DNA of 64,000 nt, from NCBI GenBank assembly GCA_965216445.1, contig OZ244166.1:1175515-1239514 (forward strand). The letters run 5' to 3'. A program made the translations under genes and the position numbers. Numbering within the stretch: position 1 is the first letter of the stretch; each line of letters starts with the position of its first letter. Below are positions 5,120 through 20,839 of this stretch, in pieces. The notes beneath the pieces were generated by a model. The model made no database searches and had not been told where the DNA came from. It worked only from the letters and a program-made list of their open reading frames with translations. Origin of the DNA: Acidimicrobiia bacterium. GTDB lineage: Bacteria > Actinomycetota > Acidimicrobiia > Spongiisociales > ZC4RG35.

Positions 5120-5659
5120 ATGCTGTTTTGGCGTCTCGGTGCGACGCTGTGGCTGTTTCGTTGGATCTTTCGAGATCCCAAGGTCGATGTTCGGTTTCTC
5201 TTCCTGGGCGTACTCGTACCCGACCTGATCGATATTCCGATTGGCACAATCTTTCTCGCCGACCGGTATTCGACCGGCGAACTGTGGGCCCACTCGTTGC
5301 TTGCGCCTACGTTGTACATGACCATCGTCCTGTTGGCCACACGTCGGGGACGGCGCCGTCGGGCGTTCATGGCGGTTGGAGTTGCCTGGCTCTTCCATCT
5401 TCTCCTGGACGGGATGTGGACCGACCCAGAAGTCTTTCTCTGGCCGTTCTTCGGGGAGATTCCGGCCGGGCCCGCCCCGTACTGGCCGCTCGCGTGGGAA
5501 CGTGCTTTGTCCGACCCATGGCGATGGGTGCTCGAAGGGGTCGGAATCATGTACCTGGTCTGGCTGTGGTTCGCCCTTGGGCTGAACATCCGAAGCCGGA
5601 GAGCGGGAACGATGTCTAGCGGGAGACTTCCCGGATACGTGAGTGAAGATGTTGGGTAG
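5120..5659 (+). CDS. membrane-bound metal-dependent hydrolase-like protein (DUF457/YdjM-like)
   Basis: Small polytopic membrane protein with His-containing motifs (HSLLAP, FHLLLDG). Family assignment is tentative. Confidence 0.35.
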   Translation: MLFWRLGATLWLFRWIFRDPKVDVRFLFLGVLVPDLIDIPIGTIFLADRYSTGELWAHSLLAPTLYMTIVLLATRRGRRRRAFMAVGVAWLFHLLLDGMWTDPEVFLWPFFGEIPAGPAPYWPLAWERALSDPWRWVLEGVGIMYLVWLWFALGLNIRSRRAGTMSSGRLPGYVSEDVG

Positions 5660-9687: not shown

Positions 9688-10029
9688 CGAGTTCGTCGGA
9701 CGGCCGCGGCGTGGGGATCCCCCAGGTCGAGGAAAGTCCGGACTCCACAGGGCATGGTGCTGGGTAACACCCAGGCGGGGTGACCCGACGGAAAGTGCAG
9801 CAGAAAGCAAACCGCCGATGGTCTTTGGACACAGGCAAGGGTGAAAAGGTGGTGTAAGAGACCACCAGCACTTCGGGTGACCGGAGTGGCTTGTAAACCC
9901 CACCAGGAGCAAGGCCAAGCAGGGATTGATGGCCCGTCGATATCCCGGGTAGGCCGCATGAGCTGACTGGTAACAGTCCGCCAAGATGGATGGTCGTCGC
10001 AACAGAATCCGGCTTATAGACGAACTCGC
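9688..10029 (+). ncRNA. rnpB: RNase P RNA (bacterial type A)
   Basis: Conserved P4 5' strand GAGGAAAGTCCGGACTCCACAGGGCA and P4 3' strand ACAGAATCCGGCTTA. P1 pairing CGAGTTCGTC(9688-9697)/GACGAACTCG(10020-10029). P3-like hairpin GTGGGGATCCCCCA. TAAAAT -10 box at 9675-9680, 7 nt before the predicted 5' end. Ends are +/- 5 nt. Confidence 0.85.
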
Positions 10030-10189
10030 ACTCGTGAAGAAGGCCCCCGATTGTCGGGGGCCTTCGCCTTGTCTTCTCCACGTTCCAAAATCCGGCGAAT
10101 CTACGTTGTCGGCCAATAGCCTGAGGGTGTCCGGAAACCTTTTCCAACCGGAGCAGGTCGAATCCGTGGCTTCAAAGGAGGAGTTGACG

Positions 10190-10837
10190 TTGGTTATCAA
10201 CAAATATCTGGCCGAATTCATGGGGACTTTGATCCTCGTGTTCGGCGGTTCGATGGGGATTCTGGCCGTCGGTGGTGCCAATGGCGCCGCCGAAATGTTG
10301 GCCATTTCCCTGGCATTCGGTATGGCCCTGTTGGCAGGGATTTGGGCACTCGGACATGTCTCTGGTGCTCACTTCAATCCCGCTGTCACCTTGAGCATGC
10401 TCCTAGACGGGCGAATCGGCGTTAGTGACGCAATCGGCTACTGGGTGGGACAGTTCGCCGGTGCAGCGGTAGCGTCGCTTCTGGTGGCGGGAGCCTCATC
10501 CACCGACATCGTTGCCGGCACCATGACGACGTTTACGGATCAGGGGACGGCGATTCTGATGGAGATCGCACTAACCGCGATATTCGTGTGGGTGATCATG
10601 GCGGTTACCAAAACTGGTGCGAACGCAGCCCCGGCCGCAATTGCCCTCACCCTGGTTGGTGTCCATCTTTCGGGTATCCCATTCTCAGGAGCGTCAGTCA
10701 ACCCGGCGCGTTCGTTCGGACCTGCTGTGGTCTCGGGGAACTTCGCTGACTTGTGGGTATACCTCGTGTTCCCGTTGGTCGGTGCTTTGGTGGCCTTCGG
10801 CCTATACCGGCTTTTCCCGGCGCCGGACGAAGCCTGA
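10190..10837 (+). CDS. aqpZ: aquaporin Z (MIP family water channel)
   Basis: Two NPA boxes (HFNPAVT and NPARSFGPAV). Start placed at TTG 10190, 7 nt after a strong AAGGAGGA RBS (10175-10182). The ORF-track start 9986 would run through rnpB. Confidence 0.85.
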   Translation: MVINKYLAEFMGTLILVFGGSMGILAVGGANGAAEMLAISLAFGMALLAGIWALGHVSGAHFNPAVTLSMLLDGRIGVSDAIGYWVGQFAGAAVASLLVAGASSTDIVAGTMTTFTDQGTAILMEIALTAIFVWVIMAVTKTGANAAPAAIALTLVGVHLSGIPFSGASVNPARSFGPAVVSGNFADLWVYLVFPLVGALVAFGLYRLFPAPDEA

Positions 10838-10923: not shown

Positions 10924-11439
10924 TCAACTGAAAAGAGGATCTTCGACAAGGTCCTGGAGTCCGACGACCCAACCAGCCGGGAGGTCCCAGTGCCGAGCAC
11001 CGGCGATCATTGTTTCGACGTATTCGACAGGTGGGACGGTCTCTTCACCTGGGCTGCCTGGGCTGACGAACGTCAAACAATCGTGCTTGTTTCCACCACG
11101 GTCGATGGCTCTTTCTTCCCAGATGGCGACCCGTCCCTCTTGCTCCTCAATAGCTGTGAGGGCCTCGATTTCGTCTTCCGGGATCTCAAACACCCCACCC
11201 CAGACGGTTGATCCCTCTCCATGAACCAGCGTCACCGTTGGCTTGGGCCCGTTGGCGACGAACGAAAGCCTGGTTTCGGGGTAATGGGCTGTGAATCGGA
11301 ATTCAGCATTGGGAGCCGCCGCGGCCAGCCGCTCCGGTTCCAGGATTGATGTATAGGCGAAGTACAGCTTCGTTTCTGGCACGGGGAGCCAAGTGTACCC
11401 GTAGCAAAACGCGAATCCCGATTTATTCCTGATAAACAC
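10924..11439 (-). CDS. gamma-glutamylcyclotransferase-like (AIG2/GGCT fold) protein
   Basis: LYFAYTSILEPERL resembles the YFAYGSNL N-terminal motif of GGCT/AIG2 proteins. GTG 11439 is only 23 nt from the divergent selenoprotein start. An in-frame GTG at 11382 (MPETKLYFAY...) is a plausible alternative start. Confidence 0.45.
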   Translation of the reverse strand: MFIRNKSGFAFCYGYTWLPVPETKLYFAYTSILEPERLAAAAPNAEFRFTAHYPETRLSFVANGPKPTVTLVHGEGSTVWGGVFEIPEDEIEALTAIEEQEGRVAIWEERAIDRGGNKHDCLTFVSPGSPGEETVPPVEYVETMIAGARHWDLPAGWVVGLQDLVEDPLFS

Positions 11440-11462: not shown

Positions 11463-12080
11463 GTGAAACGTCTCATTCTCTTTGCGGTATTGGCACTCGT
11501 CGTCGCTGCGTGTGGTGGTTCAGCGGTTTCAGACCAATCCACTGATCCCACTGATCCTGCCAGCACGGAGACAACGTCGACCTCCGATACCCCGGCAACA
11601 ACCGGGTCGGACGGTGAAACTACGACCACACCAGCTGGCGAGACCTCGACCACTTCAGGTCGTGAGGTGGCCCCTGACTTCACTCTGCAGCTCGGTGAAG
11701 GTGGAACCTTCAGTCTTTCAGACAGCTCCAAGCCGGTCTATCTGGTCTTTTGGGCTGAGTGGTGACCAACCTGTCGACGGGAGTTGCCCGTCATCGACAG
11801 AATTGCGGCTGATTACGCCGATCGAATCGACTTCGTCGCCCCTGCGTGGAAGTCGTCGTTCGCGGCCACAGAGGAGCGTGCCAATGAACTGCTCCAGTCG
11901 GGCGTGATCATGTGGGGTTTGGACGAAGATGAAGAGATATTCTCGCTGTATGGAGTCCCTTACCAGCCGGTCACAGTACTGATCGCTGGCGACGACACAG
12001 TGGTCGAAGCCTGGCCCGGTCTCAGGGACGAGGCGGAGATTCGTGCCGCCCTGGATGCGCTCATAGCGCTGACGAGCTAA
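11463..12080 (+). CDS. TlpA-like thioredoxin-fold lipoprotein, predicted selenoprotein with in-frame UGA (Sec) at 11763-11765 (UXXC active site)
   Basis: ORFs 11463..11765 and 11784..12080 share one frame and are separated only by TGA. Read-through gives ...APDFTLQLGEGGTFSLSDSSKPVYLVFWAEW-U-PTCRRELPVIDRIAADYADRIDFVAPAW...FSLYGVPYQPVTVLIAGDDTVVEAWPG. This is a complete TlpA/ResA fold with TGA exactly at the first Cys of W-C-x-x-C. N-terminal signal peptide with lipobox (LVVAAC) and Thr/Ser-rich linker. SECIS-like hairpin directly downstream. Confidence 0.6.
11771..11800 (+). promoter_or_regulatory. candidate bacterial SECIS hairpin for UGA 11763-11765
   Basis: CTGTCGA-CGGG-[AGTTG]-CCCG-TCA-TCGACAG: 11 bp in two helical segments with a 3-nt bulge. 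Apical loop contains G and U about 20 nt after the UGA, within the usual bSECIS window. Confidence 0.45.
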
Positions 12081-12105: not shown

Positions 12106-12486
12106 ATGTCAACGCAGGTTTCTACCGAGGAACTCCTCAAGGGTCTTGAGCTCCAGCTACTGGATCCCGACTTCAGGCGCGACACCGCGAAAGTTCTCGA
12201 ACTCTTGTCAGACGACTTTCTCGAGGTGGGTACCCGAGGACGCCAATATGACCTTGTGGCGATCGTTAGAGAAATGGCCAGGGGCCGACCCAGTTCGGTG
12301 GTCGTCAAGGATTGGAAGATCCGCGAGTTGTTTCCAACGGTGATGCTCTGTACATATCGCACAGTGAGCTCAACAGGCCGAGAGGTTTTTCGCAGTTCAG
12401 TATGGGTGCGGCGCAAGGACGGAAAGTGGAGAATGTCCTTTCATCAAGGCACTCCGATACCCGAGTCCTGGGGGGGACCGAGTTGA
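12106..12486 (+). CDS. SnoaL-like/NTF2-fold protein (DUF4440-like)
   Basis: 126 aa. C-terminal VWVRRKDGKWRMSFHQGT is typical of DUF4440/NTF2-like proteins. Confidence 0.55.
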   Translation: MSTQVSTEELLKGLELQLLDPDFRRDTAKVLELLSDDFLEVGTRGRQYDLVAIVREMARGRPSSVVVKDWKIRELFPTVMLCTYRTVSSTGREVFRSSVWVRRKDGKWRMSFHQGTPIPESWGGPS

Positions 12487-12529: not shown

Positions 12530-13975
12530 TTGAGAAGATTCGAACTCCTTCTCCTTTTCGCCGGACTGTTCGCCGTGGCGTGGCCAGCGGTTTTTGGCGT
12601 CCGACCACGCCGCGGGATTGCTTCGACGCTGCTCGTGGCCGCTTTCGTCGCGCATCTTCAGATCGAGGGTCTTCGTTGGCAACTGATCCCGTTGTATCTG
12701 GCCACGTTTGGTTTGGTTATCGGCGACATCGTGTTTCTCGACAGGGAGCTTCGTTGGCCACGGCGTGTCGCCAGAGGTGTTTTTGGGGTCGTTGGCTTGC
12801 TTCTGGTGGCCTCGCTCGGCTGGTTGCTTCCCGTACCCGAATTGCCAACTCCGACTGGGACGGAAGTCATCGGGACGGTTGTGGTCGAGGTCATCGACAG
12901 GGACCGGCCCGAGATCTACGGGCTGCAACCCGGGCAGGAGACTGGAGGAGATCGTCGATTCGTGGCCCAGGTCTGGTACCCAGCTGGTGATCCCGGAGAC
13001 GCTGAACCACAGGGTGTCCATCCGGATTGGCCGATAGTTGGCTCTGAGCTGGCACTGGACATCGGTTTTCCTGGCTGGTTTCTCAGTCATGTCAAATACA
13101 CGGATTCCCACTCGTTCGACTCGCTGCCAGTGGCTCCAGGAACGTATCCAGTGGTGCTCTACAGCCACGGATGGACTGGATATCGATCGATCGGTTTGAA
13201 CCAGATCGAGTCCCTGGTTTCCAACGGGTACATCGTCATCGCACCGGATCACACCTATGGGGCTGTGGCGACGGTGTTCAACGACGGCGAGGTCGTGACC
13301 TATGACCCATCTGCCCTGCCTGACGAGACCACTGTGAGTGATACTCAATACCGGGAGTCATCGGAGATGCTGGTCGAGACGTTCGCTGGTGACTTGTTGA
13401 AAATCCTCGACGAACTTGATCTCGGTGTCGAGGGTGACTTCGGTACCTTGACAGACAGTATGGACCTGACCCGCGTCGGCGTCTTCGGCCATTCGACAGG
13501 CGGGGGAGCCGCGATGCGTGTTTGCCTCGTTGACGAACGTTGTGACGCGGTATTGGGGATGGATGCCTGGGTCGAACCTCTTCCTGATCGAATCCTGGCC
13601 GAGACCCTGCAGCAGCCGTCACTGCAGATGCGGTCGGCTGAATGGCAGGCAAAACCAAATGACGCCATCCTGCGCGGGATTTCGGAACGCAGTGAAGAGG
13701 TTGCCTACTGGATAGGCATCGACGGCACCGGTCACAACGACTTTGTGATGACACCTCTTTTCTCGCCGGTTGCTGACGAGTTGGGGCTCCGGGGGCCAAT
13801 CCCGGCAGGTCGGATAATCCCGATCATCAACCAGTATCTCGTCGGATTCTTTGACGTCTTCCTGCTCGGAACAGGACCAGCTGCCATCAACACTGTCACC
13901 TTCGATGAGGTCAGTCTGGAGATCATCCCCGCGGCGAATGTGGGACAAGACGACGAGGCTGGGGATTCTGGCTGA
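12530..13975 (+). CDS. membrane-anchored alpha/beta hydrolase (PAF-acetylhydrolase-like / lipase family)
   Basis: N-terminal TM helices, then a hydrolase domain with YSHGWTG and nucleophile elbow GHSTGG, and later a DGTGHNDF region. Confidence 0.6.
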   Translation: MRRFELLLLFAGLFAVAWPAVFGVRPRRGIASTLLVAAFVAHLQIEGLRWQLIPLYLATFGLVIGDIVFLDRELRWPRRVARGVFGVVGLLLVASLGWLLPVPELPTPTGTEVIGTVVVEVIDRDRPEIYGLQPGQETGGDRRFVAQVWYPAGDPGDAEPQGVHPDWPIVGSELALDIGFPGWFLSHVKYTDSHSFDSLPVAPGTYPVVLYSHGWTGYRSIGLNQIESLVSNGYIVIAPDHTYGAVATVFNDGEVVTYDPSALPDETTVSDTQYRESSEMLVETFAGDLLKILDELDLGVEGDFGTLTDSMDLTRVGVFGHSTGGGAAMRVCLVDERCDAVLGMDAWVEPLPDRILAETLQQPSLQMRSAEWQAKPNDAILRGISERSEEVAYWIGIDGTGHNDFVMTPLFSPVADELGLRGPIPAGRIIPIINQYLVGFFDVFLLGTGPAAINTVTFDEVSLEIIPAANVGQDDEAGDSG

Positions 13976-13980
13976 GCTGA

Positions 13981-14580
13981 TTACTCGGAAGGTCTTTGTT
14001 GCGTGTCGCCAGTGACTTGTTGTCCCGGCGTCTCTCCGGCAAGGATGCCGTCAAGTGTGGCGCCGAGGATGAGCGCGTCAGCCTCGCCGATGATCTTGCC
14101 GACCACGGTGCCCTCTTCGTTGATGAAAAACGTCTCGGGAATGCCAAATACCCCGTAGGCAATCGAAGCCCTCCCGCCAGGGTCCGAAAGGTAGATAGTC
14201 GACTCCGACCTTCCCGCTTCATCCAGGTAGGCGATGGCGGTTCCACGGTTCTCGTTGTAGAGGATTTGAACGAACTGGACCCCACGGTCCGCAAAAGCTT
14301 CTGAGGTGGCGACAAAGTCGGCGTGTTCGTTGCGACATTCGGGGCACCAGGAGGCAAAGAAGTTGACCACGGTGACACTCCCGGTAAGTTCCGAAGTGTC
14401 GAACTCCGATTCTTCGTCGAGCAATTGCATGGTGAGCTGTGGTGCCGGCTGACCGAGGAGGGGAGACTGAACGAGACCAGGATCAGAACCGAAACGACTC
14501 GCCAGAACCACTGATAGGACCACAGCCACACCGGCGACCGAAAGACCGACCCATTTCAGAACGCCGCCCCTCACGTGCAC
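13981..14580 (-). CDS. ccmG: thiol:disulfide interchange protein CcmG/DsbE
   Basis: WCPECR active site and the DsbE-specific GVFGIPETFFINEEGTVVGK motif. N-terminal membrane anchor. Last gene of the ccm operon. Confidence 0.75.
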   Translation of the reverse strand: MHVRGGVLKWVGLSVAGVAVVLSVVLASRFGSDPGLVQSPLLGQPAPQLTMQLLDEESEFDTSELTGSVTVVNFFASWCPECRNEHADFVATSEAFADRGVQFVQILYNENRGTAIAYLDEAGRSESTIYLSDPGGRASIAYGVFGIPETFFINEEGTVVGKIIGEADALILGATLDGILAGETPGQQVTGDTQQRPSE

Positions 14581-15593
14581 GCCTGTCCGGCCGAGGCCAG
14601 GTCGAAGTCACTTTGAACTTGGGACCGGGTTTCCTCAGAGAGCTCGGGGTTGGCTAACACCTCGGCGAAGAGCGTCGAAGCCTGCTGGTTGTCACCTGTC
14701 CCGCACCAGATCACTTGACCCTTCAGGTAAAGCGCCACCGTGGACTCGGGCACAATGGCCAGCGCCTCGTCAAACAGAGTCACGGCAGTCTCGACCTCGC
14801 CGTTTCCGTCGTAAGCCATCCAACCCAACCGTATGAGTGCCGTCGAAGCCTCCCCTTCAGTCGATCGTTCGTCCTCAGCTACCTGCAGGTAGAGCGGGAA
14901 GGCTGATCGATAGTCGCCCGCACTGAAATAGCGCTCGGCGAGTGCAACCCGCATCCCATTGACCTGGGGATGGTCGACGTTCGCAGCAATCACCGCCTCC
15001 ATAGTCTCGTTACTCACGCCATCGAGGTTGTCGACGTCGACGCTGGCAGCCCCTGACGTGGTGGCTGGACGATCCTGGATCATCGCGCCGGCTATCAAAA
15101 CGATCAATGCGAAGCCGCCGATCACGATTAGACCGCCGACAAGCCGACGATTGGTAGTTGATGGCGTCGTTTCGTCCTCCAGTCCTCCGCCCTCCGTGGC
15201 CACGGCGGGGCCGGGATGAGCTCGCCACCAGAAAATGACCGCGACGCCGATGGCCAGGGCCGCGATGGGTGCGAGCCAAAGAAACAATGTCGAACCGGAG
15301 GCTGGAGGGTCAAGCAAAACCGAGTTGCTGAACGAGGAGAGCAGTTCGTCGATGATCTCATCGTCGCTGGCTCCGGCGGCAACCCTCTCTTCCACCAGGT
15401 CCATCATGTCGGTAGCCATCTGGGCTGGTGAGTTGGCAATCGACTCACCCTGACAAACAGGGCATTTGATGGCTGTGCCGATCCGTTCGACGCGATCGTC
15501 GGGAGTCTCGGCGGTTGCAACCAGTCCGATCAGCACGAGGGTCAGGACACCGAGAAGAGACCCGACAACGAGATTTCTGGCTCTGTCAGACAT
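14571..15593 (-). CDS. ccmH: cytochrome c-type biogenesis protein CcmH (CXXC) with C-terminal TPR/CcmI-like domain
   Basis: KCPVCQGESIANSPAQMA matches the CcmH LRCPVCQ motif. TM segment, then TPR-like repeats. Start taken at ATG 15593 (MSDRARN...), which overlaps the ccmF stop as ATGTCTGA. The ORF track begins at 15659. Confidence 0.75.
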   Translation of the reverse strand: MSDRARNLVVGSLLGVLTLVLIGLVATAETPDDRVERIGTAIKCPVCQGESIANSPAQMATDMMDLVEERVAAGASDDEIIDELLSSFSNSVLLDPPASGSTLFLWLAPIAALAIGVAVIFWWRAHPGPAVATEGGGLEDETTPSTTNRRLVGGLIVIGGFALIVLIAGAMIQDRPATTSGAASVDVDNLDGVSNETMEAVIAANVDHPQVNGMRVALAERYFSAGDYRSAFPLYLQVAEDERSTEGEASTALIRLGWMAYDGNGEVETAVTLFDEALAIVPESTVALYLKGQVIWCGTGDNQQASTLFAEVLANPELSEETRSQVQSDFDLASAGQACT

Positions 15594-17616
15594 CAGCCGT
15601 TTGACGTTTCGGCACGGTGTTGGGTTCCCCTCGGCGCGAAGTGAGAGCCCAGAAGCCACCCGCTGCCGCCAGCATGCCGCCGACCCACAGCAGCCAGATC
15701 AGCGGCGAAGTATCCAGCGATAGGGTCGCCGCCGGTGAGGTGCCGGGAGGGATACGCAGGGTGAGGTAAAGGTCCCCGCTGGGTCTGGTCAGGACCGATG
15801 GTGTTGTGATGCCCGAACCCGATCGGTAGAAGTTCACGGTTGGTTCCAACGTGGTCACGAAGCGACCCCCACGGAAAACGCTGATACGGACTCCCAAAAC
15901 TGTCCGTTGCGGTTGTTCGGACTGGAATGGGCTCTCGTAGACGAGTTCGTATCCAGCGAAGTTGGTCGATTCACCCGGTTCGAGTTCGACGGTGCTGTGG
16001 ACTCCGAGATTGGCTGCGAATGCAATACCCAGTGCTACCAGCACCACGCCAATGTGGCTCAGTTGGCCTGCCCAGAATGGTGTATCTCCACGTACCACTG
16101 TTCCCACAGCTTCGAGGAGTGACTCGCCCGTCTTATTAGATCTCCGACTCGCCTGTTCGAGTAGAAGTCCGAGGATGACACCGATTACGAAGACAGCGAG
16201 GACCGTCGCCAGGATCACCCATCCCAGTCGGGTCACGGTTAAAGCCACGATCAGTCCCGCAGTCACGGCAATCAACGCCGGGTTGCGAATCTGTCGCCAT
16301 ACGACTTCGGCAGAAGCGTGTCGCCAGGGTGTAATTGGTCCAAAACCCATGACGAGAAGTAGCGCGAAGGAAAGGGGCACAGCGAGACGGTTGAAGAAAG
16401 GCTCGCCGACTCCCACCTGAGTTCCGGTGAATGCTTCCACCAGCAATGGGTAGGTGGTTCCGATCAGGACGACAAATGCATACAGGGTGAGAATCAGGTT
16501 GTTTGCCAGGAAAGTTCCTTCCCGGCTAGCGAACGATTCGATCCGTGGTGCCGAGCTGACCAAATGCGATCTGGTGGCGAAAAGCGTGAATGAACCGACC
16601 AACACCAAAGTCAGGAATCCGAGAAGGGCGGGTCCAATCGCTGACTGTGTGAACGAGTGGACCGAGTTGATCGTCCCCGACCGGGTGAGGAAGGTGCCGA
16701 GGATCGTGAGAGCGAAAGCAGATATCACAAGTACGAAATTCCAGGCCTGGAGCATGTTGCGGCGTTGTTGCACAATCGCCGAGTGGAGGAACGCCGTGGC
16801 AACTAGCCACGGCATCAGCGAAGCGTTTTCCACTGGGTCCCATGCCCAGTATCCACCCCAGGAAAGAACCTCATAAGCCCACCACCCACCGAGAACGATC
16901 CCGAAAGTGAGAAAGCTCCAGGCGACCAGAGTCGACCGATGAGATCTCCGGAGCCAGGCGGGACCGGGAACTTTGAGTGCCAGGGCCGAAATTGCGAAAG
17001 AGAACGGAACGGATAGTCCCACGTAACCGAGGTAGAGCATTGGGGGGTGGATCGCCATCAAGATGTGGTTTTGCAGCAGGTCGTTGGGCCCTGCACCGTC
17101 TGCAGGTGCCTGAATCGATGAGAAGGGCCACGGGCTGGACACTGCGCATGCTCTCTCCGCTGCCTCGACGCACACTTCGAACGGGTTGGAGACTGTGATC
17201 ATCAAGGCAAAGAAGAAGATCCCAATGCCGCCCATTACCGCCAGCGCGCCTGCCCCAAGCCGGTCCGGTGCGGTTTCGTAACGCCTCAGTACCGCCCAGG
17301 TGAAACCGGCCAACACCAAGCCCCACAGCACGATGGATCCTTCGAGTGCTCCCCAGGCGCTGGCGACATTGAATGGGAACGGTGTCGAAGACGCATGGTG
17401 GTTGGCAACGTATGAGATCTGAAAGTCATTCGTCACCAGCGCCAGCTCCAACGCAACCATTGCCACAACGGCACCACTGAGAAGCAACCGCACGGGTGGT
17501 CTGAGGTTCGACACACCCGTTTCGGAGCGGGCGACTGCCACCGCTCTGGCCACGAGAAGAACTGCTCCAACCAGACCTGCTGCGATTCCGATTGTTCCCA
17601 AGAGGGAAAGCAGCAT
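15586..17616 (-). CDS. ccmF: cytochrome c haem lyase subunit CcmF
   Basis: 676 aa polytopic protein with the WWD domain WGGYWAWDPVENASLMPWL. Confidence 0.9.
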   Translation of the reverse strand: MLLSLLGTIGIAAGLVGAVLLVARAVAVARSETGVSNLRPPVRLLLSGAVVAMVALELALVTNDFQISYVANHHASSTPFPFNVASAWGALEGSIVLWGLVLAGFTWAVLRRYETAPDRLGAGALAVMGGIGIFFFALMITVSNPFEVCVEAAERACAVSSPWPFSSIQAPADGAGPNDLLQNHILMAIHPPMLYLGYVGLSVPFSFAISALALKVPGPAWLRRSHRSTLVAWSFLTFGIVLGGWWAYEVLSWGGYWAWDPVENASLMPWLVATAFLHSAIVQQRRNMLQAWNFVLVISAFALTILGTFLTRSGTINSVHSFTQSAIGPALLGFLTLVLVGSFTLFATRSHLVSSAPRIESFASREGTFLANNLILTLYAFVVLIGTTYPLLVEAFTGTQVGVGEPFFNRLAVPLSFALLLVMGFGPITPWRHASAEVVWRQIRNPALIAVTAGLIVALTVTRLGWVILATVLAVFVIGVILGLLLEQASRRSNKTGESLLEAVGTVVRGDTPFWAGQLSHIGVVLVALGIAFAANLGVHSTVELEPGESTNFAGYELVYESPFQSEQPQRTVLGVRISVFRGGRFVTTLEPTVNFYRSGSGITTPSVLTRPSGDLYLTLRIPPGTSPAATLSLDTSPLIWLLWVGGMLAAAGGFWALTSRRGEPNTVPKRQTADV

Positions 17617-18023
17617 CAGCTGTCCTCTACCGGCGTTCCCTCTTCGGGAATGACGTAGTTCTCGTCGTGGCGGATGAGTGCGTTTGTTGCCGCGTAGTCG
17701 TCACCGTCCCAAGATCCGTCGAGAAGTACCGGGACCGTATCGTTGAACAGAGGCGGGGGAGTGTCGGCGAGTCGGACGCTGATTGTTGCTCCACCGTCGG
17801 TGACGTCAAACAAAAGATCGTCTCCAACCTCGACCACGGTCCCCGGCACCACCGAACCGGCCAACCGGAATTGCTCGCCGTCAGGGAACGAATCCCGCTG
17901 GTCCACTGCTTCGGTGGGATAGAGGTAATAAGTCAGGTTGTCATCGAGATTGATCAATGACATTGCCACGATCAGAGCGATGATGCCTCCGATTCCAAGA
18001 AGGACCAGAGATCGATGCTCCAT
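17616..18023 (-). CDS. ccmE: cytochrome c maturation haem chaperone CcmE
   Basis: N-terminal TM anchor then OB-fold. C-terminal LIRHDENYVIPEE matches the CcmE haem-binding HDENY motif. Confidence 0.85.
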   Translation of the reverse strand: MEHRSLVLLGIGGIIALIVAMSLINLDDNLTYYLYPTEAVDQRDSFPDGEQFRLAGSVVPGTVVEVGDDLLFDVTDGGATISVRLADTPPPLFNDTVPVLLDGSWDGDDYAATNALIRHDENYVIPEEGTPVEDS

Positions 18024-18025
18024 TA

Positions 18026-18130
18026 CTACCGCTCCGCTCTCTTGCGACGCAGATGCAGATAGACGGCATAGCCAAGGGTCGACCCGTAGACAACGGCGTA
18101 AGTTGCGATCACGACCAGCGAATCAGACAT
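18026..18130 (-). CDS. ccmD: haem exporter protein CcmD (35 aa, single TM)
   Basis: Not in the ORF track. Minus strand reads ATG TCT GAT ... = MSDSLVVIATYAVVYGSTLGYAVYLHLRRKRAER*, a hydrophobic helix followed by basic residues as in CcmD. The ATG overlaps the ccmC stop as ATGTCTGA, and the stop lies 2 nt before the ccmE ATG. Confidence 0.5.
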   Translation of the reverse strand: MSDSLVVIATYAVVYGSTLGYAVYLHLRRKRAER

Positions 18131-18833
18131 CTTTCACCTCGGACAGCCGTGGGGGTGAAACTGGATCGTTGGCTAGATCGGCGTCGAGTTCGGCCGCCTC
18201 CTCAATCCGTCCGACGTATGTTCGAGCCATGAGAAGTGCGATGTAGAGCACAGTGAACGCAGCGACATTGACCAGCATCGCAACCAGAATCTCGGTTGCG
18301 AGAGTGCTCCCATCGGGTCGAATTGACTGTGTCTGGTGAAGGGTTCGCCAGAGGTTGACCGAGAAGTAAACAAGAGGAACCTGGACAACAGCAACGGTGC
18401 CGAGTATTGCCGCCCGTTTTGCTCGTGTTTCGGGGTCGGCGACCGCCCTTCGCAAGGCGAGATAGCCGATGTAGACGAAGATCATCACCGCCGTTGTGGC
18501 GAGACGTGCGTCGCTCCAGTCCCATGCCTGTCCCCACACGGCCTGACCCCAGACCATCCCTGTGAACACACCGACCACTGAGAAAATGACTCCGATCTCC
18601 GCAGAGGCTGCCGCGAGCCGATCCCATCGCCGGTTCTTGGTCAGCAAGTACAGAACTGAGCCGAGTGCGGTCAATCCGAATGCGAGAAACGCCAGCCACA
18701 AAGTCGGGACGTGGACGTAGATCATTCGGGTGTAGACACCTTGGAGCTGGTCGAGGGGAGCGGTGAATGCCAGGAATGCACCGTAGGCCAGCGCAATCGC
18801 CGCTACGAGAAAGGTCACCTGTACTCGTCTCAT
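18123..18833 (-). CDS. ccmC: haem exporter protein CcmC
   Basis: WGQAVWGQAWDWSDARL is the CcmC WWD motif (WGxxWxWDxR). 236 aa, 6 TM. Confidence 0.9.
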   Translation of the reverse strand: MRRVQVTFLVAAIALAYGAFLAFTAPLDQLQGVYTRMIYVHVPTLWLAFLAFGLTALGSVLYLLTKNRRWDRLAAASAEIGVIFSVVGVFTGMVWGQAVWGQAWDWSDARLATTAVMIFVYIGYLALRRAVADPETRAKRAAILGTVAVVQVPLVYFSVNLWRTLHQTQSIRPDGSTLATEILVAMLVNVAAFTVLYIALLMARTYVGRIEEAAELDADLANDPVSPPRLSEVKDV

Positions 18834-19504
18834 CTGGTTGCTTCCTCAAGGGGTCTCGACAACGCTATCCCGGCTACGAACAGAGCCAAATCGGCTGTGG
18901 TCAACAACAGAATCCATAACAGGATACCGTTGCCTCGTTCCATAGCTTCCAGGACCTGAGAGGCACCGACCACGACGGGTATCAGGAGGGGCGCCACGAT
19001 CAGGGATGCGAGGGAGGATCGGTTCCGTAAGCCGCTGGCGACTTCGCCGGCGAGGGTGGAGAGCATCGCCAGGCCAACCGAAGCAAGTGCACTTGCGAGC
19101 AGAACGGGGAGTGGCCAGCCATCCGGGAGATCTGGGTTGAAGAGGAATACCATCGACATCCACAACACCGCCATGAAGCCCAGCAGCAGCAATGTGGCAG
19201 CAAGGGATCGCCCGAGGAAACGTGCGGCCGGGTCGAGCCCGAGAAGCATTGTCGTGTCCCGTCGTTGCGATGTCTCAGATACCGAGGTTCGTAATGCCAC
19301 CTGCATTCCGTAGAGAATGGCAACGGCCCAGAAAATCGCTGTGCCGAGATCATTGAGCGAGGTCCCGGAGTCTGCAGCGACGATGGAGAAGATCATCATG
19401 GCGACGACTGCAAAGGGAAGGACGATGCGGAACGTGTCACCCAGACGGCGCTCCACGACCAGGTCGACTCTGGCTACCTCAGCGGTCTGACGCCACAAGG
19501 TCAT
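18830..19504 (-). CDS. ccmB: haem exporter membrane protein CcmB
   Basis: 224 aa polytopic ABC-2 type permease. Sits between ccmA and ccmC with ATGA overlaps. Confidence 0.8.
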   Translation of the reverse strand: MTLWRQTAEVARVDLVVERRLGDTFRIVLPFAVVAMMIFSIVAADSGTSLNDLGTAIFWAVAILYGMQVALRTSVSETSQRRDTTMLLGLDPAARFLGRSLAATLLLLGFMAVLWMSMVFLFNPDLPDGWPLPVLLASALASVGLAMLSTLAGEVASGLRNRSSLASLIVAPLLIPVVVGASQVLEAMERGNGILLWILLLTTADLALFVAGIALSRPLEEATR

Positions 19505-20145
19505 GATCTGCGCTCCAGCTGTCCGCCGGTTAGACGCAAGGTTGTCTGGAACACCGGTGAAAGGCCATCGGGCTCGTGGGTGACCGCCACCACACCACCG
19601 CCACGTTCCAATGTGGTTGCAGTGAGGGCATCGACAAGTCCCCGGGAGTCAGCATCCAGCCCGGTGCGCGCCTCATCGAGGAGAAGCAGTTTCGGCTTGG
19701 CCATCAGTAGCCAGGCAACCTCGACCCTTCGCTTCATACCGAAACTGGACTCCGAAACCCGCGTCGAGGCGGCCCGTTCCAAGCCAACGGTGTGCAACGC
19801 CTTTGCTGTTGCCTCCTGGGGGCGACCGGTCAGGGTATTGAAGTGGTTGAGGTTCTCTTCGAGGGTCAGCTCCTCCAACAGACCAGGCGTGTGACTGATG
19901 AGGCCGATCGAGGTTCGAATCTTCCGTATTCCGCTGCTGCCGATGTCAGTGCCCAAGACGGACCCCGAACCGGATCGAGGGCGTATCAGAGTGGCTAGGA
20001 GTCTGAGCAATGTAGTTTTTCCACTTCCGTTGGCGCCGACCACCGCGCACGCTTCACCGGTGCCCAAACTGAAATCGACATCACGGAGGATTGTCTTCCC
20101 GCCGAGGGCGACTGTCACGGAATGCAGGTCAAAGATGCTGCTCAC
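19501..20145 (-). CDS. ccmA: cytochrome c biogenesis ABC ATPase CcmA
   Basis: Walker A GANGSGKTT, signature SFGMKRR, Walker B LLLLDEARTGLD. 214 aa. Confidence 0.8.
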   Translation of the reverse strand: MSSIFDLHSVTVALGGKTILRDVDFSLGTGEACAVVGANGSGKTTLLRLLATLIRPRSGSGSVLGTDIGSSGIRKIRTSIGLISHTPGLLEELTLEENLNHFNTLTGRPQEATAKALHTVGLERAASTRVSESSFGMKRRVEVAWLLMAKPKLLLLDEARTGLDADSRGLVDALTATTLERGGGVVAVTHEPDGLSPVFQTTLRLTGGQLERRS

Positions 20146-20176
20146 GGGTCGAGTCTCCCCGCCTAGTCCAAAACAC

Positions 20177-20839
20177 TCAAGTTGGATTGGGGTCCCGACG
20201 CGAGCCGATCAAGGCGATTGCCAACCCAGCAGCGATCCCAGCGATGTACCAGGCCGTCGGACCCCCGGTCAACGACAGTCGGAAGGGTTCAGTCATCAAT
20301 CGCACCGCTGAAGCGAGTGCCAGTGCGGAACCACCCCGCACTCCGACCGTCCAAGGCAGTCGGGAAACAGCAACAGCTGCTCCGAGCATCCCAAGGGCGG
20401 CGTAGATCTCGACCGGGTGACGGGTGATTGTGCTCCCCGCCTCAGACCATGCCCAAGGGAGAGAAGAAGCGGTTCCCAGGCAGGCACCCCTCCAAAGGCA
20501 GCCGAGGTGCCATCCGGCCAACCCCAGCAAAGCCGTGGGTGCCAGGGCATCGAGAGATCGAAGATGCTTTCCCGTCATCAGGAACAGCGTCACCACAGCA
20601 AAGACAACAGCAGCCGGTGTGTTGACCCCACCCCGGACAATTATCAAATCGCCGAGGTTCGTGATGGGGTTGATGCCCTGTAGGGCCATTGCGGTTACCC
20701 GTCCTCCCAACAATCCCGCAGCGGCCGATCCAAGAAGGGCATCGAATGCTGAATCCGGGACACGCTCTGGCCACAATCTGAGTCCAACCCACATTGCAGC
20801 TACTGCTGTGAGCGCTGCCCACAAGAGTGTGAACTCCAT
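20177..20839 (-). CDS. Lgt-like (prolipoprotein diacylglyceryl transferase family) membrane protein, short form
   Basis: LLGGRVTAMAL and GCLWRGACLGTASSLPWAW resemble the Lgt GGRIGY and GRLGNFINGELWG...LPWA motifs, but the protein is 220 aa against about 290 for Lgt. Its ATG lies 1 nt after the stop of the upstream tlpA-like gene. Confidence 0.4.
   Translation of the reverse strand: MEFTLLWAALTAVAAMWVGLRLWPERVPDSAFDALLGSAAAGLLGGRVTAMALQGINPITNLGDLIIVRGGVNTPAAVVFAVVTLFLMTGKHLRSLDALAPTALLGLAGWHLGCLWRGACLGTASSLPWAWSEAGSTITRHPVEIYAALGMLGAAVAVSRLPWTVGVRGGSALALASAVRLMTEPFRLSLTGGPTAWYIAGIAAGLAIALIGSRRDPNPT

Follow-up and report, generated by a model that had tools for sequence, protein, structure and literature searches.

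A probable bacterial SECIS element within the coding region of a TlpA-like thiol-disulfide oxidoreductase gene

Described bacterial SECIS elements and the UGA-containing gene

Bacterial SECIS elements are described by a consensus model of the bSECISearch type (Zhang and Gladyshev, summarised in PMC13188914, Fig. 2), in which an upper stem of 4 to 16 bp carries an apical loop of 3 to 9 nt (PMC13188914, Fig. 2), a G occupies one of the first two loop positions and is usually followed by G or U, 16 to 37 nt separate the UGA from the apical loop, and the minimum free energy (MFE) is -7.5 kcal/mol or lower (PMC13188914). In the SECIS of E. coli fdhF, 11 nt separate the UGA from a 17-nt upper stem-loop whose stem bears a bulged U and whose loop includes G23 and U24 (PMC8659212); we confirmed these positions on the E. 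coli sequence. Selenoproteins that combine a UxxC motif with a thioredoxin fold have been known since the 2005 analysis of the Sargasso Sea (PMC1088965), and the families found there include a TlpA-like “thiol-disulfide isomerase-like” family (cd02966) and a “Prx-like” family (PMC1088965; table in PMC13188914). The replacement of a redox-active Cys by selenocysteine (Sec) in such a UxxC motif is the classic signature of a Sec/Cys pair (PMC1088965). Sec machinery has also been reported in Actinomarinales, another order of the class Acidimicrobiia (preprint 10.64898/2026.04.03.716425), where selA, selC and selD together with a divergent selB were found in 84 of 84 complete Actinomarina genomes (2026 preprint 10.64898/2026.04.03.716425).

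The locus described here lies in a 64-kb stretch of DNA, analyzed as a whole and referred to below as the window. Translation reveals one reading frame on the plus strand, from 11463 to 12080, which is broken by a single TGA at 11763-11765. The features of this gene and of the RNA hairpin downstream of the TGA are as follows.

11463-12080, plus strand: predicted selenoprotein gene, with GTG start, in-frame TGA as codon 101 and TAA stop; 205 residues
11463-11513, plus strand: predicted signal peptide with lipobox V-A-A-C, a motif in the translation; Cys17 at 11511-11513
11763-11765, plus strand: predicted Sec codon UGA, at the first-Cys position of the WCxxC redox motif (W-U-P-T-C)
11771-11775, plus strand: 5' arm (CUGUC) of the lower helix, within the MFE fold; not conserved
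11772-11774, plus strand: TGT, resolving Cys of UxxC; a Cys codon (TGT or TGC) is invariant here in all family members
11776-11792, plus strand: conserved core of the probable SECIS, the 17-nt stem-loop GACGGG/AGUUG/CCCGUC, from RNAalifold and covariation; it starts 10 nt after the UGA
11782-11786, plus strand: apical pentaloop AGUUG, with G21 and U22 as the presumed SelB contact
11796-11800, plus strand: 3' arm (GACAG) of the lower helix, parted from the core by an AUC bulge at 11793-11795

With U read as C, the translation matches the Pfam families AhpC-TSA (PF00578; E = 1.6e-11, 44.6 bits against a cut-off of 26) and Redoxin (PF08534; E = 3e-11, 43.7 bits against a cut-off of 26.6). Both matches cover residues 69-182 and run across the TGA, after which the reading frame carries on with the redoxin domain for another 104 codons. 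The placement of the UGA in frame, as an earlier reading of the sequence had it, is thereby borne out, with the TGA lying inside the open reading frame and spanned by the AhpC-TSA/Redoxin match. A domain score above the gathering threshold, together with a CxxC-type motif (W-U-P-T-C, in the context VFWAEW-U-PTC-RRELPV) following beta-1, places the protein among the TlpA/ResA-like oxidoreductases, and its general best profile match is ResA. The N-terminus, MKRLILFAVLALVVAAC, carries the lipobox and is followed by a Thr/Ser/Pro-rich linker that extends to about 11660; the A-C lipobox cysteine is aligned in most full-length homologues. The product is thus predicted from its translation to be a TlpA/redoxin-like thiol-disulfide oxidoreductase of lipoprotein type, and the mature selenoprotein is probably an exported lipoprotein, as predicted from the lipobox motif only.

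Fold and conservation of the stem-loop

The RNA from 11771 to 11800, CUGUCGACGGGAGUUGCCCGUCAUCGACAG, folds as CUGUCGACGGG-AGUUG-CCCGUC-AUC-GACAG. This hairpin of 11 bp with a 5-nt AGUUG loop is the MFE fold in every context computed (30, 48, 56 and 101 nt), in agreement with the sequence-only reading, which had proposed a hairpin across the same 30 nucleotides. Numbering the element from the U of the UGA as +1, the loop G is found at +21 and the loop U at +22, so that the figure of about 20 nt given earlier for the loop G and U is correct; 16 nt (11766-11781) separate the UGA from the loop. The folding energy is -14.8 kcal/mol for the 30-nt hairpin and -9.2 kcal/mol for the 17-nt core alone. 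None of 200 shuffles of the isolated 30-mer folded equally well (z = -4.05), while in contexts of 48 to 56 nt the z-score was -1.84 to -1.35 and 10 to 24 of 200 shuffles were equally stable; the sequence around the hairpin has a G+C content of 59%. Thermodynamics confirms the hairpin but is by itself no demonstration of function, and since the local folding energy is unexceptional, the case that the structure goes beyond chance rests on the comparison of orthologues.

As had been claimed from the sequence, the hairpin matches the generic bacterial SECIS model, and does so in all four structural respects (PMC13188914). It is situated within the coding region, immediately 3' of the in-frame UGA; its 5-nt loop closes a conserved stem of 6 bp (11 bp in total in this genome); the loop reads A-G-U-U-G, with G at the second position and U after it; the spacing falls exactly on the lower limit of the model; and the energies of both the core and the 30-nt hairpin lie below the threshold.

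Protein searches returned relatives of two types. Full-length proteins of about 180-230 aa share the same FWAEWCPTCRRELPV peptide, and many others are 98-aa fragments whose first residue is the Leu or Met of ELPV, as results when gene callers stop at a TGA. The closest full-length Cys homologues share 60-75% identity with the window protein. A scan of species representatives (one genome per species) yielded 80 loci, most of them from MAGs labelled Acidimicrobiia or Actinomycetota, in which the active-site codon is TGA in 72 and TGC or TGT in 8. With 28 further TGA forms from a metagenome scan, the TGA is kept in 100 fetched orthologous loci (72 species-representative genomes and 28 metagenome contigs), in lineages 50-76% identical to the window protein. 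Four contigs that carry the selenoprotein gene (L005, L006, L013 and L046) belong to MAGs labelled Boseongicola, Acidobacteria or Gammaproteobacteria, labels that probably reflect mis-binning or mislabelling and not horizontal transfer. Six close Cys forms, fetched individually, share the gene neighborhood of the window in the order GGACT-like gene (opposite strand), TlpA-like gene, DUF4440 and PAF-AH-like hydrolase, and are therefore true orthologues. In the closest Cys forms, which share the peptide FWAEW-[U/C]-PTCRRELP with the window, a Cys stands opposite the TGA and both flanks are conserved, as is characteristic of a Sec/Cys pair (PMC1088965).

An ungapped alignment of 48 nt from the UGA onward was submitted to RNAalifold, which returned exactly six pairs, joining columns 14-19 with columns 25-30 (window positions 11776-11781 with 11787-11792). 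Across 68 distinct sequences this 6-bp core helix is paired in 99.5% of cells, and when the 3' arm is shifted by 1 to 3 columns as a sliding control, pairing drops to 35-77%. Compensatory changes are seen at two of the six pairs: 14/30, with the states GC (60 of the 68 sequences), GU (4), AU (2) and UA (1), and 17/27, with GC (64), AU (3) and GU (1). At 15/29, AU and GU alternate, and four of the six pairs in all are invariant or vary on one side only. Covariation is confined to two of six pairs, since the majority of the helix columns do not vary. Further AU variants occur among the metagenome sequences (L099-L101 and L112). The nearest neighbours of L025, L046, L112, the L099-L101 clade and L024 are sequences of the G-C type, from which it follows that the compensatory changes arose several times, independently. 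Several changes in the 5' arm replace Arg in the protein by Gln, Leu or Asn, and the compensating changes in the 3' arm are synonymous. Within the loop, A20, G21, U22 and U23 are invariant among 90 distinct Sec-form sequences, and position 24 is either G or A. Conservation with compensatory substitutions, the comparative evidence to which the sequence-only reading had pointed, is thus found for the core in about 100 TGA-bearing orthologues.

Pairing in the lower helix (11771-11775 with 11796-11800) is limited to 70.6% of cells, and 54 of the 68 sequences leave its outermost pair open. Of the 11-bp hairpin originally put forward, all 11 bp and the 5-nt loop stand as the MFE fold in this genome, but conservation extends to 6 bp and the pentaloop only, and the lower stem drawn earlier is lineage-specific. 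That drawing also placed a UCA bulge in the 3' arm by pairing G14 with C33, a register that has to be given up: the MFE fold has instead a continuous 6-bp upper helix followed by an AUC bulge. The comparative support for the G14-C33 register is likewise lower, this pair being unpaired in 15 of the 68 distinct sequences, against 1 of 68 for G14-C30, which is paired in 67 and shows 3 compensatory cells. Judged by this conservation, the functional core appears to be the 17-nt stem-loop at 11776-11792, composed of 6 bp and a pentaloop.

Sec and Cys forms and the competing explanations

The relation between the helix and the UGA is seen in the codons downstream of the active site. We examined 132 codons in 89 distinct Sec-form genes and calculated codon entropy at the residues with a conserved amino acid. 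For the five codons from +5 to +9, which specify R, E, L, P and V, the entropy is 0, 0, 0.47, 0.26 and 0.60 bits, the codons being CGG, GAG, TTG or TTA, CCC, and GTC or GTT; for other conserved codons it is 2.4-2.5 bits where the residue is Arg and about 1.1-2.0 bits where it is Leu, Pro or Val. A similar stretch of frozen codons is not seen anywhere else among the 132 codons of these 89 genes. The Leu codon is one of the rare codons TTG and TTA in 89 of 89 Sec forms and mostly CTN in the Cys forms, and R-E-L-P is written with eight different codon combinations in nine sequences of Cys orthologues. All six core pairs are possible in 86 of 90 Sec forms versus 1 of 18 Cys forms (Fisher p = 3.7e-15, uncorrected for phylogeny), and the MFE fold holds the core helix in 64 of 73 Sec forms versus none of 8 Cys forms. 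The sole Cys exception to the pairing contrast is L089 (362-409), a TGC form with the SECIS core fully retained. Its identity to two TGA forms, L003 and L011, is 89%, and it represents either a change from Sec to Cys in the very recent past or a variant introduced by sequencing or assembly. The comparison shows that the RNA constraint is tied to the UGA and that the protein sequence is not the cause of the conservation. The proposal that these nucleotides serve both as code and as RNA structure is confirmed by codons for R-E-L-P-V that are nearly frozen in the Sec forms only.

These data bear on the idea that the hairpin is a by-product of coding, in which the codons that write C-R-R-E-L-P-V are self-complementary by chance and the RNA as such is without function. 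The peptide is indeed highly conserved in Sec and Cys forms alike, and the four pairs that never vary or vary one-sidedly are what such an explanation would allow. The syntenic Cys orthologues nevertheless write the same peptide in many codons without forming the helix, synonymous sites in the Sec forms are frozen at only five of the 132 codons, the rare Leu codons are used without exception, and changes that alter an amino acid are compensated on the opposite arm. The Sec versus Cys comparison effectively refutes a coding by-product, and we regard it as very improbable. A different role for the hairpin as RNA, for example in pausing for lipoprotein export or folding, in mRNA stability or as the site of a different factor, would be in keeping with a stable, conserved local structure in the gene of an exported protein. 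The choice between TGA and TGC/TGT at the active-site codon would be expected to make no difference to any such role, but the structure persists only where that codon is TGA, and the one TGC form that has it is consistent with a recent conversion; we accord this explanation next to no probability.

Whether the TGA is decoded at all, and as what, raises two further alternatives. Public gene calls split the gene at the TGA into products of 100 aa (P0122, 11463-11765) and 98 aa (P0026, 11784-12080), which are unnamed or called “hypothetical protein”, and the same 98-aa “hypothetical protein” is listed in dozens of related MAGs. TGA is moreover the commonest ordinary stop in the window (49 of 79 long ORFs). 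Taken at face value, these two-ORF calls and the usual role of TGA here would make the codon a real stop, leaving a pseudogene or two small genes next to a hairpin that is either irrelevant or terminator-like. But the two halves together make one redoxin domain with the TGA at the position of the catalytic Cys, they stand in the same frame with both flanks conserved in about 100 lineages of 50-76% identity, a pseudogene would gather frameshifts and more stops, and the hairpin is not followed by the U tract of a terminator. The chance that translation truly ends at this codon seems to us very slim. The usual role of TGA as a stop elsewhere in the window also rules out a genome-wide reassignment of the codon, and TGA at 11763 is therefore a site-specific exception. 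Alternatively, the UGA might be read through without Sec, by hairpin-stimulated insertion of near-cognate Trp, Cys or Arg or by SelB-independent recoding. Stop-codon readthrough stimulated by downstream hairpins occurs in other systems and provides a precedent, and the 64-kb window holds no homologues of selA, selB or selD (tblastn with E. coli SelA, SelB and SelD) and no tRNA genes, including tRNA-Sec (ARAGORN). The same tblastn search found no selA, selB or selD in the flanks, up to 3 kb on each side, of the 80 species-representative loci. Readthrough of this kind is nonetheless unlikely: an enzyme with Trp or Arg at its catalytic position would be inactive, a small invariant loop that contains GU and keeps a fixed distance is in keeping with recognition by SelB, the UGA takes the place of the redox-active Cys in a UxxC motif (PMC1088965), and Sec use has been reported within the class (preprint 10.64898/2026.04.03.716425).

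Having weighed these explanations, we conclude that the hairpin is very probably a bacterial SECIS element within the coding region of a TlpA-like thiol-disulfide oxidoreductase gene, a conclusion built on the observed fold and position of the stem-loop, its conservation and covariation, its strict association with TGA as opposed to TGC or TGT, and the correspondence of the UGA to the catalytic Cys in the alignment. The window yielded neither a further selenoprotein gene nor another SECIS of this type. The motif GGAGTTRCC occurs at three sites there, and those at 5378 (plus strand) and 31293 (minus strand) were rejected as they are without complementary arms; a generic scan for a TGA followed by a hairpin with G in its loop, within the open frames of the window, gave 11 candidates.

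Genomic setting, proposed decoding and relation to known systems

The gene is surrounded by the following features.

9688-10032, plus strand: RNase P RNA, bacterial class A (Rfam RF00010, 313.8 bits), about 1.7 kb upstream of the selenoprotein gene
9986-10837, plus strand: MIP/aquaporin-family channel
10924-11439, minus strand: GGACT/AIG2-like gene
12106-12486, plus strand: DUF4440
12530-13975, plus strand: PAF-acetylhydrolase-like alpha/beta hydrolase
13981-20839, minus strand: System I cytochrome c maturation cluster, ending in Lgt
13981-14580, minus strand: DsbE/CcmG-like redoxin, WCPEC
14571-15659, minus strand: CcmH
15586-17616, minus strand: CcmF
18123-18833, minus strand: CcmC-like gene
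18830-19504, minus strand: CcmB
19501-20145, minus strand: ABC ATPase, likely CcmA
20177-20839, minus strand: Lgt, prolipoprotein diacylglyceryl transferase

About 2 kb separate the seleno-TlpA gene from the cytochrome c maturation cluster. The SECIS loop region is matched by the 11-mer GGGAGTTACCC in non-coding sequence of five related loci (L003, L007, L009, L042 and L056); by eye these sites look like the neighboring RNase P RNA gene, and the match looks like a coincidence. In all, second copies of GGGAGTTRCCC occur in six related loci and were rejected as SECIS elements, being coincidences: five lie apparently in the RNase P RNA gene and the sixth in an unrelated E-L-P codon run of the GGACT gene.

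The way in which a SECIS element at this position may act can be modelled on the SelB-SECIS system of E. coli and Moorella, from which the binding of SelB, the insertion of Sec and the route of export are drawn by analogy. With the ribosome at the UGA (11763-11765), the stem-loop at 11776-11792 would be exposed just outside the mRNA entry channel, where the AGUUG loop, including G21 and U22, would be presented by the 6-bp, G+C-rich helix. SelB, carrying Sec-tRNA(Sec) and GTP, could then bind this loop through its C-terminal domain, and its binding would tether the ternary complex at the A site so that the UGA is decoded as selenocysteine and termination is avoided. The expected product would be a thioredoxin-fold protein, exported and lipid-anchored, with U-P-T-C as its redox centre.

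Reading the locus in this way corrects an annotation error, in that one gene for a redox enzyme is publicly represented by two hypothetical ORFs of about 100 aa. It also indicates the presence of selenocysteine in an extracytoplasmic thiol-disulfide oxidoreductase of lineages that are mostly labelled Acidimicrobiia. Sec and Cys orthologues with the same peptide further provide a clean natural experiment, showing the constraint that a SECIS places on synonymous sites. The SECIS element itself reveals no new mechanism. We offer more tentatively the possibility that the gene belongs to a previously undescribed and unannotated family of exported TlpA-like seleno-lipoproteins, spread over about 100 fetched lineages, most with the label Acidimicrobiia, and possessing a compact, near-invariant 17-nt SECIS without a bulged U. 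Were this true, the recognition motif of a divergent actinobacterial SelB would be given by the SECIS of the family, and Sec use would be common in Acidimicrobiia other than Actinomarina.

Among described elements, the bacterial SECIS consensus is the closest general model. Like the elements it covers, the present one accompanies a Sec/Cys pair within a redox motif; it differs in a sequence that is unusually invariant across the family (GGG-AGUUG-CCC) and in a lower stem that is optional. The fdhF element of E. coli is similar in its 17-nt core, which begins 11 nt from the UGA there and 10 nt from it here, and in a loop GU that lies at +23/+24 in fdhF and at +21/+22 in the present gene. It is unlike the present element in its bulged U17, where we find 6 continuous base pairs, and in its GGUC loop as opposed to the pentaloop AGUUG; there is no sequence similarity between the two. 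The bulged U is a determinant for E. coli SelB. Its absence from the 5' arm sets the element apart from the fdhF type, even though the loop GU is present, and by analogy the element would work as that of fdhF does while being of another sequence type. In Rfam, no SECIS-type family matched the window at the gathering threshold, and a search of 11650-11900 at E <= 10 gave chance-level matches only, with no SECIS-type family among them; bacterial SECIS elements are poorly represented in that database (preprint 10.64898/2026.04.03.716425).

At the protein level, the likeness to the UxxC selenoproteins of the Sargasso Sea comprises the thioredoxin fold of TlpA/AhpC-TSA type, Sec as the first residue of UxxC, the existence of Cys-form homologues and, as compared by description, a SECIS hairpin directly downstream. 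The present family is distinguished by being a lipoprotein, by its occurrence mostly in Acidimicrobiia-labelled genomes and by its conserved GGACT/TlpA/DUF4440/hydrolase neighborhood. Two NCBIfam families, NF041057 (Rcas_1661 family thioredoxin-like (seleno)lipoprotein) and NF041054 (ResA-like WAxxUGC motif protein), are likewise exported proteins or lipoproteins with seleno forms. The window protein scores 25.6 bits against the NF041057 cut-off of 190 and 21.9 bits against the NF041054 cut-off of 300, and its motif is WAEW-U-PTC and not the WAxxUGC of the latter. The element is thus of a textbook kind and the selenoprotein of a known kind, and what is new is their membership in an apparently unannotated family.
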